Shown here in pieces: positions 41,547 to 52,619 of a DNA stretch of 64,000 nt. The notes under the pieces are model-generated. The model was not told the DNA's origin. It did not search any database and saw nothing but the letters and a program-made list of their open reading frames with translations. The position numbers were made by a program, and so were the translations under genes. The stretch is from Victivallales bacterium (GTDB lineage Bacteria > Verrucomicrobiota > Lentisphaeria > Victivallales > GWF2-38-69): contig CAXXMS010000003.1 in assembly GCA_963678745.2 (NCBI GenBank), positions 35,979 to 99,978 of the forward strand, read 5' to 3'. Position 1 is the stretch's first letter; each line of letters starts with the position of its first letter.

Positions 41547-43943
41547 ATGAAAAATAAATTGTTTAACCTGTTTATGGTATTTGCTTTTTGTTTAGCAGTA
41601 AGCGGGTATGCAGAAGAAACCGAAACCGCAAAAGAGCAGTCAGAAATAATTACAAAAGACGAAGGATGCGGGAAGTATTATGATATGGCCTCTGATGCCA
41701 TTATAACAATGGGTAAATTTGCAGATTCAAAATTCAATTCCACTAACTACAATCTTGCATCAGGAGAAAGCGGCTTAACTGAGACCGACGCTGCAGATGT
41801 TGATACTGCTACAGAAGCAAACGTTTGCACTGCTGATGAAGACCAGGAAATAGCGGAAGACTTTATGAAGGATGTATTGAAGTTTATTGCAAACTGTGTT
41901 GCTGATGGAGTAGCTGAAGGTTCAGGAGATGCAGTAGCAAGTGTAGTTGGACTTTGCGTTGCTGCTGAAAGTGTAGATATAGCTGAAAATATCTGTAATT
42001 TAGCTTTTGCTGTTTTTTCAATTATTATGCTTGAAGATATAAATTGGTTCGAACCTTCTGTTAGAAAAATTAAATTCCCGATAAATACTATAATCAATAA
42101 TCAATCTAATGACTACAGCTTTTATGTTACATCGTATAAAATTTTACCTGGACAAAAAGTCAAAGGAAAAACACAAACTGGAAAGCCGCTCCACACTATA
42201 ATAAAACCGGGAAATGCACACCTTTTCAGCTATATTACAAATTATAATGGACATGATAATAAACTAAGCGAGCCTGCTACTATTAAACCTAGATACGTTC
42301 CATTTTTTGTCAGGCCTATTATAAATAATATTTTACTCCCAATGAGCATTATGTACACAGGAACATGGGAATACGGCAGTGATAATATACCCAACTATAA
42401 TTCAGATGTAGCCTTTCCTCTTTATGGAGGATTGCCGGATAATCAGATTAATTTCTTTTCAGGAACACATATATCATATCAGACTCAGTACTCTGAAGTT
42501 AACCAACAATGTGAGGCCATTAATAATCCCTGGTTTACTAATAATAACCTGGATCTTTGCACAATATCAAGTTACTCCGACAACCCTAAAGTTCTTACAC
42601 ATGGTAGAATACAATATGATATAGATGTGCCAACTCTCCCGCAGATAACAATGTGGGAAATAATCGTTGACCTAAGTAAATTTGATTATTCCAAAACAGT
42701 AGTAGATGCAGGTGTAACAACTTCTGAAAGTTTTTTTAATTTATATTTGTATAACGCTGCAAAACCAGAACCATTAAGTAATGGTAACCAATTTTTCCTT
42801 TTTGCGGCTCCGAATAATAATATTACAGCAGATCAGCCATCACCCGGTATGCTTTCATTGAACATATTACCAAGCAATGTTTTTATTCCTCTATATACAT
42901 ATGCAGACAATGGGTATATGACTTTCTACTTAGCAATGGTTAACTCAGACAATGACAATGATCCTCCTTATACTCCGGTTATTGTTGGGCAGATGGGTAA
43001 TAAAGGAAATTTTAGTACACCAAGTGAGCCAGATGGCGGCGCCATAATTACTGATCAGTTCATCATACCTTTGAATTTAGACTGGACAAAAGGTAGCATG
43101 CCATGGTCTAATTCCGAATTTCAGATGAATTTATTAGATAAACCATTTTTTGTAACTCCATCAGGAGATTTAACTGATAATATACCTGATACAACCGTAT
43201 ATAACCTATACCAAAATCTAATGAATTCGGGTGGTACAAGCGATTCCTATAGTTCGTTCGATATAGTTTCTCCTGATTACAATATAACAACTACATCTGG
43301 AAATATTAGCGGTACCCTAATTGAAGATTATGAATCTAATAACAGTAATCAATATACCTATACAATTACTATTTCTCCAAATCAAAACAATACACCCGCA
43401 AAGAGCAGCAGTTCATCCTCCCAATCGAATCCTATTAAAGATATACCGAGTCTTAATAATGAAATGAGTATTACTACAAATAAAAATGTTACTCTACCGC
43501 CTGTAAATAATAAGAACAGCTCAGTGTCAACGGCAACTAAAAAGAATGATCCGACAAAAGCTAAAAGCAGCAGTTCTAGCACACCAACGCAGACCATTAA
43601 CAATACTCCGGCAAGCAGCAGTTCGAGCACGCCGTCTCAGACCATTAACAATACGCCGGCTAGCAGCAGTTCTAACACACCATCGCAGACCATTAATAAT
43701 ACGCCGGCTAGCAGCAGTTCGAGCACGCCGTCGCAGACCATTAACAATACTCCGGCAAGCAGCAGTTCGAGCACGCCGTCGCAGACCATTAACAATACTC
43801 CAGCTAGCAGCAGTAGTTCAAATTCACAGTCACAGATTATCAATAATTCTACGGCAATCGACAACACCTCTGCTTCTCAGCAGATTATTAACAATGCTGT
43901 TAATTCCACAGGAACTGAAAATGATAATGAAGGAAGCATATAA
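41547..43943 (+). CDS. Exported protein, family A paralog 1 (A1), with C-terminal Ser/Thr-rich tandem repeats
   Basis: Signal peptide MKNKLFNLFMVFAFCLAVSGYA/EE. It is paralogous to ORF 50847-52619 (several conserved blocks, see findings). No family was recognised. Confidence 0.75.
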   Translation: MKNKLFNLFMVFAFCLAVSGYAEETETAKEQSEIITKDEGCGKYYDMASDAIITMGKFADSKFNSTNYNLASGESGLTETDAADVDTATEANVCTADEDQEIAEDFMKDVLKFIANCVADGVAEGSGDAVASVVGLCVAAESVDIAENICNLAFAVFSIIMLEDINWFEPSVRKIKFPINTIINNQSNDYSFYVTSYKILPGQKVKGKTQTGKPLHTIIKPGNAHLFSYITNYNGHDNKLSEPATIKPRYVPFFVRPIINNILLPMSIMYTGTWEYGSDNIPNYNSDVAFPLYGGLPDNQINFFSGTHISYQTQYSEVNQQCEAINNPWFTNNNLDLCTISSYSDNPKVLTHGRIQYDIDVPTLPQITMWEIIVDLSKFDYSKTVVDAGVTTSESFFNLYLYNAAKPEPLSNGNQFFLFAAPNNNITADQPSPGMLSLNILPSNVFIPLYTYADNGYMTFYLAMVNSDNDNDPPYTPVIVGQMGNKGNFSTPSEPDGGAIITDQFIIPLNLDWTKGSMPWSNSEFQMNLLDKPFFVTPSGDLTDNIPDTTVYNLYQNLMNSGGTSDSYSSFDIVSPDYNITTTSGNISGTLIEDYESNNSNQYTYTITISPNQNNTPAKSSSSSSQSNPIKDIPSLNNEMSITTNKNVTLPPVNNKNSSVSTATKKNDPTKAKSSSSSTPTQTINNTPASSSSSTPSQTINNTPASSSSNTPSQTINNTPASSSSSTPSQTINNTPASSSSSTPSQTINNTPASSSSSNSQSQIINNSTAIDNTSASQQIINNAVNSTGTENDNEGSI
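43566..43856 (+). repeat. 48-bp tandem repeat, 5 full + 1 diverged unit (encodes SSSS(T/N)P(T/S)QTINNTPA)
   Basis: Units start at 43566, 43614, 43662, 43710 and 43758, with a diverged unit at 43806. They differ mainly at synonymous positions. Confidence 0.95.
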
Positions 43944-43970
43944 GTAAATTATTAATTAAAAATGAATAAT

Positions 43971-44190
43971 AGTGTGAGTAGCGAGTCAATGCCACTGAAT
44001 TAAGGAAAATCTGTATATAAAATCGCCATGAGTGGCCGGCGAGTATTAGGTTTCGCTTAACAGCTACACCTTAACAGGCTGCCAGCCCTCCACAAATTAT
44101 ATCCGATGGAGGGCGGTTGTCCTCAACCGCCGCACATAGCGTAATGCTTAATTCAATGACATTAAGTAGCGAGTAGCAACCGGCGAAAAG
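43971..44190. other. G+C-richer structured intergenic insert with nested inverted repeats
   Basis: The outer repeats are gtgagtagcgagtcaatgccactgaattaag and cttaattcaatgacattaagtagcgagtagc. The inner hairpins are ccctcca...tggaggg and cggttgtcctcaaccg. The minus strand contains GTGCGGCGG at about 44132-44140. Confidence 0.5.
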
Positions 44191-50772: not shown

Positions 50773-50846
50773 CTCAAAGCAATAAGACTTAAAAAATTTG
50801 ACAAAAATATTTTTTATCAAATAAAAATATATTAAAGGTGATTAAA

Positions 50847-52619
50847 ATGAAAAATCGAATGTTATCTAATTTGATTTTATGTGGGTTGTTTATTTTTTCA
50901 TTAAATACTTTTGCTGAAGATAGCACAAATCCTGCAAAAGAACTATTAGAAAAAAAGGAGTACATCAAGTATTATAATAAAGCAACAGATGTGCTTGAGA
51001 GATTAGGTCAGATCGCAATAGAAGGACAAACACCAACCGTAGAGAGTGTTTCTTATAAGGGTCTCAGTGACAGCTCAGGAAATGTTACCGATGAAGCTGC
51101 AGAGTCAACATCAGAAAATCTTTTTGGTGTTGAAGTAGATTCAAAACTTACAGATGCATTTAATAACGACTTCAAATCTGTTATAGCAGAAGTTATTTCA
51201 AAAGTAGTCCCTGATGAATTTGGAGGAATTACTTCTGAAGGAGTAGCATACCTTTGCGGATTATTAACTGCAGAATCTGCAGAGGCGATTGCCAGCTCTT
51301 TTGATATTGTCGCAAACTTCATAATATTTATTGTTATGGTTGATCCAGGCTTATTCGAACCTTCAAATTCTTCATATTCTTCAGATTTTCAATTAACTAC
51401 AAATTTAACCAATAATAATTCAGAATATCCACTTATTATAGAGCATTTCAATATTAATGCTTCAAACAATAGTAAAGACAAAAGCTCAACTAAAAAATAC
51501 TTATATGCAAGTAGTAATCTTGCTACAGGGCATATATCAAAAACCGCTCATAAATGTTCATTCAAAGTGGAGGCTGGAGACCCTGCTGTATTTAAACCTG
51601 CTGTAATACCAATATTAGTAAGACCACTGATTAATAATGTTGCACTTCCTGCCAGTATGATTACTCAGATGTTTGGTTATAGTTGCAGTTTTCTATCTGG
51701 AAACGACAGTAGTACTTATGAGTGGGATATTCTTGCTTTCGGAGGGTTAAATCCAGATAACCAGATTAATTTCGTAACTTCACAATGGCATTACCCCAAA
51801 CCTCAGCCTAATGCTGTGAATGATCCAAAGTTTTATCCTGACCTTAGTAGCAGTATAGATAATGAAGTATCAATAATTTCATGGATAAGTGACAACCTTA
51901 CTAAGTCTCCGACAATGGAATTAGATTACGGAATTGATGTTGTAGAAACAAATTCATATATGTGGCAGTTGACTTTTCAAAACAATGACCCTAATTATGT
52001 TTATAAATATAGTGTTTATACAGAAAATTCCCCAAAGTTAGATACTCTTTCAGGTGTAGGTTTATTTACTCCAAATTTTTACACACAGGCTGACAGTTCT
52101 TTTCCCCCAAACTGTTTTGAGTTTGAGATTGTACCACTGAATAATGTCGGTTATACATCTCCTAAAATCCCGATTAATGAGTACGGCATAATAAATTTAG
52201 GCTGGGCTACTACTGAAACACTCACAGTCAACAACGATGTCAATACATTTTATATAACATTCACTGCTTATAATCAGGGTGATACCGGTATCTTAGAAGA
52301 ATATGGTTCTTTTGTTTTACCTTTAAAAATCATTACAAAGAAAACAGGAGGATTTATTGGGATAGGTCAAACAGTTCAGCCCTTTATTGAGCCACAACCG
52401 ATTCAGGGAGGCACTATTACTAATCAACCACCGTGGGATCCTACAAAGACTTTGACAAATCAGAATGCGATAATTGGGAAAAGCAAAAATAATACGAGTG
52501 TGCAGGGGTTAAATATTGAAGACTATACTTCTGAACAATCATATAAAAATAATCCTATTAATATTATACTGAATAGCTCCACTATAGAAAATGGAAGTTC
52601 TTCTAGCGGTTCTCTTTAA
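50847..52619 (+). CDS. Exported protein, family A paralog 2 (A2)
   Basis: The ATG at 50847 is preceded by aaaggtga; the ORF-track start at 50838 is GTG. Signal peptide MKNRMLSNLILCGLFIFSLNTFA/ED. It is paralogous to A1. Confidence 0.75.
   Translation: MKNRMLSNLILCGLFIFSLNTFAEDSTNPAKELLEKKEYIKYYNKATDVLERLGQIAIEGQTPTVESVSYKGLSDSSGNVTDEAAESTSENLFGVEVDSKLTDAFNNDFKSVIAEVISKVVPDEFGGITSEGVAYLCGLLTAESAEAIASSFDIVANFIIFIVMVDPGLFEPSNSSYSSDFQLTTNLTNNNSEYPLIIEHFNINASNNSKDKSSTKKYLYASSNLATGHISKTAHKCSFKVEAGDPAVFKPAVIPILVRPLINNVALPASMITQMFGYSCSFLSGNDSSTYEWDILAFGGLNPDNQINFVTSQWHYPKPQPNAVNDPKFYPDLSSSIDNEVSIISWISDNLTKSPTMELDYGIDVVETNSYMWQLTFQNNDPNYVYKYSVYTENSPKLDTLSGVGLFTPNFYTQADSSFPPNCFEFEIVPLNNVGYTSPKIPINEYGIINLGWATTETLTVNNDVNTFYITFTAYNQGDTGILEEYGSFVLPLKIITKKTGGFIGIGQTVQPFIEPQPIQGGTITNQPPWDPTKTLTNQNAIIGKSKNNTSVQGLNIEDYTSEQSYKNNPINIILNSSTIENGSSSSGSL

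Follow-up and report, generated by a model that had tools for sequence, protein, structure and literature searches.

Introduction

Lineage-specific families of exported paralogs encoded in accessory regions include the PF07598 virulence-modifying proteins of Leptospira and the Hop outer-membrane proteins of Helicobacter. Other exported proteins work in pairs: XaxAB and YaxAB, members of the ClyA superfamily, are two-component α-pore-forming toxins with subunits of about 350-450 aa that are encoded as co-transcribed A-B pairs and are detectable with sequence profiles. Known C-terminal sorting signals include the C-terminal domain (CTD) of the type IX secretion system (T9SS), the PEP-CTERM, GlyGly-CTERM and LPXTG tripartite signals, and the β-signal of outer-membrane proteins, with its terminal aromatic residue. 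The locus considered here is set against these systems. It lies in a 64,000-nt stretch of a Victivallales genome (assembly GCA_963678745.2, contig CAXXMS010000003.1, positions 35,979 to 99,978; hereafter, the window), and comprises four genes of two paralogous families, in the order A1-B1-B2-A2, and a gene upstream of them, P913.

The reading favored here, held at a probability of about 0.5, is that P913, A1, B1, B2, and A2 make up an accessory, lineage-specific cluster encoding five large Sec-exported proteins, which would be surface-located or secreted and would use a common route of export or sorting. Coordinates of the genes and of other features are given in Table 1.

Two Families of Ancient Paralogs

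The four open reading frames (ORFs) A1, B1, B2, and A2 follow one another on one strand, as an earlier sequence-only reading of the window had described. A1 and A2 align at 28% identity over 384 aa (BLASTP, E = 3e-26), and B1 and B2 at 31% identity over 737 aa (E = 1e-85); these alignments contain all of the peptide blocks on which the earlier reading had founded its two families. A merely compositional similarity is ruled out: the matches persist in SEG-filtered BLAST (E = 6e-20 for A1/A2 and 1e-81 for B1/B2), and Smith-Waterman comparison with 100 shuffles that kept composition within 20-aa windows gives z = 21.7 for A1/A2 and 79.5 for B1/B2. With such local-composition shuffles A scores at background against B (z ~0), and P913 is at background against A or B; profile-profile comparisons of A with B, of A or B with P913, and of the B1 extension (described below) with the B core yielded nothing significant. 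A six-frame tblastn search found no other copies or fragments of A or B within the window.

In the well-aligned blocks, nucleotide identity at codon positions 1, 2, and 3 is 0.51, 0.58, and 0.37 for the A pair, and 0.55, 0.65, and 0.39 for the B pair. Synonymous sites are saturated in both pairs, and nonsynonymous divergence (dN) is 0.72 for A versus 0.57 for B. Saturation of synonymous divergence (dS) together with conservation of positions 1 and 2 marks the pairs as old duplicates that have been maintained as proteins; the deep, old divergence that had been proposed is thus borne out, amino-acid identity being ~30%. By these sequence measures A1/A2 and B1/B2 are ancient paralog pairs under protein-level constraint.

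The codon-position pattern also bears on whether the locus might be in decay or without function, for instance as the remains of a mobile element, which its position in a rearranged segment rich in insertion sequences (IS) and the lack of known homologs could suggest. Such decay does not fit intact ORFs of 590-1339 codons at 33% GC, where stop codons are frequent, nor the much stronger conservation, between paralogs, of the first two codon positions than of the third, nor the presence of Shine-Dalgarno sequences, signal peptides and native codon usage; from the codon-position pattern and the ORF lengths, non-functionality appears very unlikely.

B2 is collinear with residues 36-692 of B1 and has a ~65-aa S/N-rich insertion relative to it. 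B1 continues for a further ~650 aa (~620 aa in the sequence-only reading) without counterpart in B2; the last ~100 aa of this extension are faintly similar, without significance, to the helices at the C-terminal end of B. The true start of A2 is probably the ATG at 50847 rather than the GTG at 50838: the ATG lies 5 nt after AAAGGTGA, is the start used in the public protein collection, and gives an N-terminus (MKNRML...) that parallels that of A1 (MKNKLF...).

Searches for Relatives

Searches of Pfam, NCBIfam, PHROGs, and PADLOC with whole proteins gave no match for A1, A2, B1, B2, or P913. Pfam searches of fragments, carried to E ≤ 10, returned nothing for A, B, P913, or the B1 extension, and sequence and profile searches of the PDB, with P913 and the B1 extension included, returned noise only. 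An exhaustive hmmsearch of 1.84 billion sequences, which represent ~15 billion proteins, recovered B1 and B2 alone with the profile built from these two. When B2, A2, and an A1+A2 profile were run against a word index of 5.8 billion clusters, only the queries came back; this search, swamped by low-complexity words, missed even the paralog within the window, and taken alone is weak evidence. Scans for relatives were empty for patterns of the B profile in 185,579 species genomes, for patterns of the A profile in JGI metagenomes and IMG/VR, and for B2 in plasmids. At 90% identity the five proteins are effectively singletons, the cluster of A1 adding only an unrelated-looking 46-aa fragment. The five are thus orphans: none has a known domain or a detectable homolog elsewhere.

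Export Signals and Protein Features

A1, A2, B1, and B2 have the features of Sec-dependent export. Sequence reading and a hydropathy scan show a basic n-region, a hydrophobic core, and a c-region with a small-x-small site in each, with predicted cleavage at ...SGYA/EE (A1), ...NTFA/ED (A2), ...TVHA/DS (B1), and ...SVYA/AP (B2); all four are predicted to be exported with cleavable signal peptides. Hydropathy indicates no other convincing transmembrane segment, save a hydrophobic stretch rich in Ala, Val, Gly, and Ile at residues ~120-170 of A, and no C-terminal transmembrane segment in A1, A2, B1, B2, or P913. The A and B proteins are rich in N, S, T, and Y, with low-complexity S/T/N linkers and 5-14 cysteines per protein; the sole invariant Cys pair (C-x5-C) is that of B, in the block DSNCKYNxAC. 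Catalytic or repeat motifs of the HExxH, GxSxG, or RTX kind were not found in these proteins.

A1 appears to consist of a signal peptide, a helical/hydrophobic N-terminal region, a β-rich middle, and an S/T/N-rich repeat tail. The 3' end of the gene contains a 48-nt tandem repeat that encodes 16-aa SSSSTPSQTINNTPAS units, and a repeat-family scan covers the same region. AlphaFold2 models built on two-sequence alignments were unusable, with a mean predicted local distance difference test (pLDDT) score of 35 for B2 and 28 for A2; tentatively, B would pass from a β-rich N-terminal third to a long helical region, and A from a helical N-terminal region of ~170 aa to β structure.

Proteins of this kind might be surface-coat or adhesin paralogs that serve surface variation, as an S-layer or a variable outer-surface protein would, with duplicates that are antigenically distinct. 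Large exported N/S/T/Y-rich proteins with low-complexity linkers and a length-variable repeat in A1 would suit that role, as would genes that are strain-specific, fast-evolving, and without homologs, and that are native in composition, which implies long residence in the lineage. However, the paralogs are ~30% identical with saturated dS, and show no recent gene conversion, cassette switching, or silent or partial copies; their cysteine content is unusual for S-layer proteins, and the genes are accompanied by neither an invertible promoter nor a recombinase. A role in surface variation is judged improbable.

P913 and a Shared C-Terminal Ending

P913 also begins with a signal-peptide-like hydrophobic segment, the cleavage sites of all five proteins being of the A-x-A type, and shares a second feature with the A and B proteins at the opposite end. 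The last three residues are GQL in P913, GSI in A1, GHL in B1, GDI in B2, and GSL in A2; G-x-[I/L]-stop is therefore found in 5/5 consecutive proteins of the cluster, each time after a hydrophilic N/E/S-rich tail, and the longer ending N-[ED]-x-x-G-x-[IL] is common to P913, A1, and B2. When termini were listed for all 40 window ORFs of at least 120 aa, G-x-[I/L]-stop occurred in 1/35 of the other ORFs; it occurred in 0/26 ORFs of related loci, and composition leads one to expect it in ~1% of proteins. The codons used for the ending differ, which makes it a feature of the proteins, and B1 retains it beyond the ~650-aa extension that B2 lacks.

Because P913 shares export features and the G-x-[I/L] ending with A and B, the set is probably one of five genes rather than four, with P913 as the fifth member. 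The ending itself may be a shared signal for sorting, secretion, or processing, and is put forward as a candidate for one. The literature, searched for secretion signals that consist of a C-terminal tripeptide, offered nothing relevant.

P913 also contains the pentapeptide YGDGF at residue 190, with S/T/G/A-rich flanks of alternating hydrophobicity (residues ~90-260) that look like amphipathic β-hairpins. The MACPF signature is Y/W-G-T/S-H-F/Y...GG, in a domain that also has two amphipathic TMH regions, and the resemblance raises the possibility of a secreted toxin apparatus, in which P913 would be a MACPF/CDC-like β-pore former, A and B would be accessory, targeting, or translocated components, and the paralogs would supply alternative specificities. 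The Ala/Val/Gly-rich hydrophobic helical segment of A would be in keeping with such an apparatus, and accessory loci are common locations for toxin genes. The match of P913 to MACPF/CDC proteins is nevertheless a single pentapeptide; searches of Pfam (MACPF model included) and of PDB sequences were empty even at E ≤ 10 on fragments, and nothing ties A or B to any toxin family. A toxin apparatus is regarded as quite improbable.

Two side observations concern P913 and its surroundings. The tetrapeptide [I/M/Y]-N-Y-P occurs near the mature N-terminus of P913 (residue 33), B1 (residue 43), and B2 (residue 56), and N-Y-P recurs in the downstream membrane protein P370 (52717-53829, residue 111), where EYNYPKLP may be set beside QYNYPQAP of B2; the window as a whole has five NYP tripeptides versus ~2 expected, a weak signal. 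Directly upstream of P913, a 243-aa protein (37301-38032) has a signal peptide and the sequence GFSFG (GxSxG) but no Pfam match; its gene has a higher GC content at third codon positions (GC3, 0.36) and a less typical codon usage (r = 0.66), and may have come from a foreign source, with a secreted serine hydrolase as its product.

Predicted Transcription Units and Gene Order

A1 and B1 are separated by 359 nt, and B1 and B2 by only 32 nt, the spacing noted in the sequence-only reading; A1 (GAGGAG) and B2 each have a Shine-Dalgarno sequence upstream. The hairpins that this reading had placed 3' of B2 and A2 exist by folding, though with weak U-tracts, and are probably intrinsic terminators; a further terminator-like hairpin lies in the A1-B1 gap. 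A perfect TTGACA is present in the B2-A2 gap, upstream of A2. Taken together, the hairpins and gap sizes suggest the units (A1)(B1-B2)(A2), in which A and B would not be paired in operons.

The start of B1 has some features of its own. The ATG lacks a recognizable Shine-Dalgarno sequence at 5-10 nt (44280-44306), and an 8-codon mini-ORF (MHLKQITK-stop) located behind AGGGAG overlaps the B1 start with its stop codon (AAATGA); the overlap may reflect translational coupling, or chance.

The sequence-only reading had proposed that A and B act together as two-component units that arose by duplication of one A+B module. Neither proposal is supported: hairpins separate A1 from B1 and B2 from A2, and a single tandem duplication gives A-B-A-B, not A-B-B-A. 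Inverted duplication is excluded by the location of all four genes on one strand. The order may have arisen from a longer array that lost one A from its interior and one B from its end, or B may have been duplicated in tandem and A duplicated independently and moved; the similar dN of the two pairs is compatible with co-duplication, but is no proof of it.

Binary units in which A1 works with B1 and A2 with B2, such as a binary toxin or a receptor with its partner, do find some encouragement in the locus: A and B genes neighbor one another on a single strand and code for exported proteins, the two pairs are similarly diverged, and both families are confined to this one locus. The A-B-B-A order speaks against such units, as do the hairpin in the A1-B1 gap and the strong hairpin between B2 and A2, which leave B1-B2 as the sole tightly coupled pair. 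P913 moreover shares the export features, so the unit may exceed A+B, and Pfam and PDB searches revealed no similarity to known binary toxins. Pairing of A with B is considered doubtful.

Genomic Setting

The nearest relative fetched is represented by two contigs, L003 and L001, of ENA metagenome assembly ERZ21869602. L003 matches the window at 17414-21025 (74-82% nucleotide identity) and at 24006-24288, and L001 matches it at 54471-63999 (75-83%). The IS-rich segment of ~30 kb that contains the cluster has no counterpart in either contig, and tblastn found none of its proteins in the L001 and L003 loci; by this comparison, the location of the cluster is accessory and strain-specific. A cluster of type II secretion system (T2SS)-like genes, gspD/gspE/gspF, and a PilM-like gene are found in L001 a few kb past the last gene of the window.

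Codon usage of P913, A1, B1, B2, and A2 is native: relative synonymous codon usage correlates with that of core genes at r = 0.85-0.91, and GC3 is 0.23-0.30 versus 0.24 in core genes. The genes are thus long resident, or came from a donor of identical composition, and recent horizontal acquisition was rejected on composition.

TABLE 1. Features of the orphan cluster and its surroundings in the window (aa, amino acids; nt, nucleotides; SD, Shine-Dalgarno sequence).
Feature	Coordinates	Strand	Description
P913	38155-40884	+	909 aa; upstream of A1; start at 38155 after GGAGA, as in the protein collection; singleton cluster
A1	41547-43943	+	798 aa; from ORF listing
A1 tandem repeat	43565-43814	+	48 nt x 5.2; Tandem Repeats Finder, 89% matches, score 388
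Hairpin in A1-B1 gap	44192-44213	+	Terminator-like; GGGCAAAUA...UAUUUGCCU, 9-bp stem, then UUUGUAU; by folding
B1	44303-48322	+	1339 aa; from ORF listing
B1 N-terminal region	44303-46378	+	~690 aa, homologous to B2; signal peptide, β-rich domain, helical domain with DSNCKYNxAC (secondary structure from the low-confidence model)
B1-specific C-terminal extension	46379-48322	+	~650 aa; ends GHL-stop
B2	48355-50709	+	784 aa; from ORF listing
Hairpin after B2	50730-50769	+	14-bp stem; -22 kcal/mol; z = -7.35; 0/200 shuffles as stable
A2	50847-52619	+	590 aa; start moved from GTG at 50838
Hairpin after A2	52632-52667	+	15-bp stem; -24.6 kcal/mol; z = -7.3
IS-rich segment with cluster	24288-54471		~30 kb; without counterpart in L003 or L001
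HTH_23/Transposase_29 element	24.5-26.8 kb		
IS630, left copy	~27081-28400		
Group II intron	28643-30460	-	Rfam; domains D1-D4 and domain V
ISNCY element	34969-36945		488-aa transposase (35269-36735); 59-nt inverted repeats, 81% complementary
IS630, right copy	~56125-57450		Just past the right synteny break at 54471

The two IS630 copies are direct and spaced by 29,044 bp, with 99.8% identity between the transposases and 100% over the 300 nt compared. The right copy is missing at the syntenic site in L001 and is thus a recent insertion. A composite transposon bounded by the two copies was considered and rejected, as the right copy is outside the synteny break. A diverged IS630 fragment is present at 28420-28656. 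The reverse transcriptase ORF of the group II intron is in three pieces (29969-30388, 29462-29965, and 28717-29241), and the intron-encoded protein therefore looks degenerate or frameshifted. In the 662-nt gap upstream of A1, a long hairpin (~41003-41060) is followed by the frame KYHIVFIPKYRKK-stop, the N-terminal motif of Y1 transposases; this locus (~40990-41150) is taken to be an IS200/IS605-like remnant, to which Rfam gave no match.

Four paralogous regulators of the helix-turn-helix (HTH)(XRE)-PAS type, 30-39% identical, are encoded in the window at 2727-3914 (-), 30793-32391 (-), 32976-34802 (-), and 54686-55759 (+). Three of the four flank the orphan cluster, and the regulator at 54686-55759 has an ortholog in L001, which at the syntenic site is without the cluster. 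Downstream of the cluster (~53260-54343), the 3' half of P370 is copied on another NCBI/ENA contig of 371 kb (95% aa identity from residue 182), as is the adjacent 101-aa ORF at 54038-54343 (-), with at least 90% identity (P0007, P0028 on that contig); the N-terminus there is unrelated. A sequence of ~24-32 nt occurs at 53837-53868, 18696-18727, and 15758-15781 with 94-96% identity, just past three unrelated genes (P370, a TolC-like gene and a patatin gene), and may be a shared terminator or an element of the repetitive extragenic palindromic (REP) kind. Outside the IS-rich segment, a GDP-mannose dehydratase region (21092-23934) is 95% identical to positions 8477-11359 of contig L002 from ENA sample ERZ21878193; this identity, versus ~75-83% in core genes, and the synteny breaks on both sides make it look like a recently exchanged glycan-synthesis cassette.

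The window is a piece of chromosome from a low-GC (~33%) bacterium, and most of its housekeeping proteins are singletons at 90% identity, so the lineage is poorly sampled. Its genes include a TolC-family gene and those for a B12-radical SAM protein and an M32 peptidase. A thiamine pyrophosphate (TPP) riboswitch (8901-9023, 76 bits) precedes a thiG-thiH-thiD2/thiE-thiC operon (9411-14106) with a short-form ThiC; operon and riboswitch mark the window as chromosomal and indicate a thiamine pathway of the anaerobe type. To judge from the TolC-family gene, the thi operon, and other window genes, the host is diderm, and it is probably anaerobic.

A Proposed Role for the Cluster

If the five genes do form one exported set, P913, A1, B1, B2, and A2 would cross the inner membrane via Sec and act outside the cytoplasm, either on the cell surface or as secreted proteins. 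Because catalytic motifs were not found, a role in interaction (adhesin-, coat-, or toxin-like) would be expected of them rather than an enzymatic one. The hydrophilic tail with G-x-[I/L]-COOH would mark a shared downstream step of sorting, secretion, or processing, for which the T2SS-like gspD/E/F system that adjoins the syntenic region in L001 would be one possible route. The A-B-B-A order would reflect successive duplications and rearrangements within an island prone to recombination rather than two mirrored A+B operons.

Several points weigh against this reading. The localization and function of the cluster proteins are predicted from sequence, and the case for the T2SS comes from synteny with a different genome, at a site outside the window. 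The G-x-[I/L] motif was noticed post hoc, and kinship of the paralogs leaves ~3 independent families rather than five, with a corrected significance of ~1e-3 to 1e-2. Depth of search was uneven: exhaustive for the B profile, by word index and peptide patterns for A, and by curated libraries and the PDB for the B1 extension and P913. With the AlphaFold2 models unusable, the proteins may yet be remote homologs of a known fold. As to the transcription units, a consensus terminator scan did not call the hairpins, whose U-tracts are poor, and all the genes may be co-transcribed by read-through.

A more far-reaching proposal is that the five proteins are substrates or subunits of an undescribed extracytoplasmic apparatus: three orphan families, with folds that have no database relatives, would be exported by Sec, recognized through a new G-x-[I/L]-COOH signal by a common machine for secretion, anchoring, or processing, and assembled in a multi-component surface or toxin complex. 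This is considered unlikely. Exported proteins of 590-1339 aa that are under purifying selection and have no homolog among ~15 billion predicted proteins are rare, and those of this cluster, from an under-sampled lineage, are good candidates for new folds or for new surface or secreted functions. If the G-x-[I/L] ending is a true sorting signal, it defines a new route of export or anchoring with cargo that can be predicted from sequence; if it is not, these would be ordinary strain-specific accessory genes for surface proteins, diversifying by duplication in an IS-rich island.

Comparison with Known Systems

Several types of system were considered and rejected. For an autotransporter or outer-membrane β-barrel there was no Pfam match, and the C-termini are hydrophilic low-complexity tails that end in GSI, GHL, GDI, and GSL. 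Neither Pfam nor NCBIfam gave a plug, barrel, or SusD match of the kind that a SusC/SusD or TonB-dependent receptor pair has. Phage structural or tail-fiber proteins were dismissed in view of the Sec signal peptides and the absence of PHROG matches, relatives on viral contigs, and nearby phage genes, and anti-phage defense in view of the absence of a PADLOC match. None of the defining features looked for in these families was found.

In some respects B1 and B2 resemble polymorphic toxins of the Rhs and CdiA kind, as they are in tandem and share an N-terminal region of ~700 aa, beyond which B1 has an extra, unrelated C-terminal region. In contrast to those toxins, the common region is 31% identical rather than near-identical and has no Rhs/YD or filamentous haemagglutinin repeats, and B2, far from being an orphan toxin cassette, is a full protein that starts with a signal peptide of its own. 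A polymorphic-toxin cassette was rejected on the identity and the missing repeats, and also because the 32-nt gap is too short for an immunity ORF.

The likeness to XaxAB and YaxAB is that two unrelated secreted proteins, proposed to act together, are encoded by adjacent genes, and that helical regions with a hydrophobic segment may be compared with the A N-terminus and the C-terminal half of B. The cluster proteins differ in their size (590-1339 aa), their β-rich domains, their lack of profile and PDB matches, and the hairpins between A and B. Searches for ClyA-like or XaxA/XaxB members gave no Pfam or NCBIfam match at E ≤ 0.1, or at E ≤ 10 on fragments, and PDB profiles were empty; nor do the gaps and hairpins predict a co-transcribed adjacent A-B pair such as binary toxins have.

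As in systems with C-terminal sorting signals, unrelated proteins that are encoded together combine an N-terminal signal peptide with a common feature at the extreme C-terminus. The cluster proteins differ in that they lack a transmembrane helix with a basic tail, a CTD domain, or a terminal aromatic residue, and no sorting-domain match to PEP-CTERM, LPXTG, GlyGly-CTERM, or the T9SS CTD was obtained in NCBIfam or Pfam.

The Leptospira PF07598 and Helicobacter Hop proteins are also large, diverged paralogs with signal peptides that cluster in a variable region rich in mobile elements and whose function cannot be assigned by sequence. Both are covered by Pfam models and are represented by numerous members in different strains and species, whereas A and B have two members each at one locus in one genome, the B profile finding no others in 1.84e9 representative proteins. 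A variable island with a cluster of paralogous genes for exported proteins is thus a familiar kind of locus; what is unusual in this one is that proteins of such size have no relatives, and that a single C-terminal ending is common to three unrelated families.

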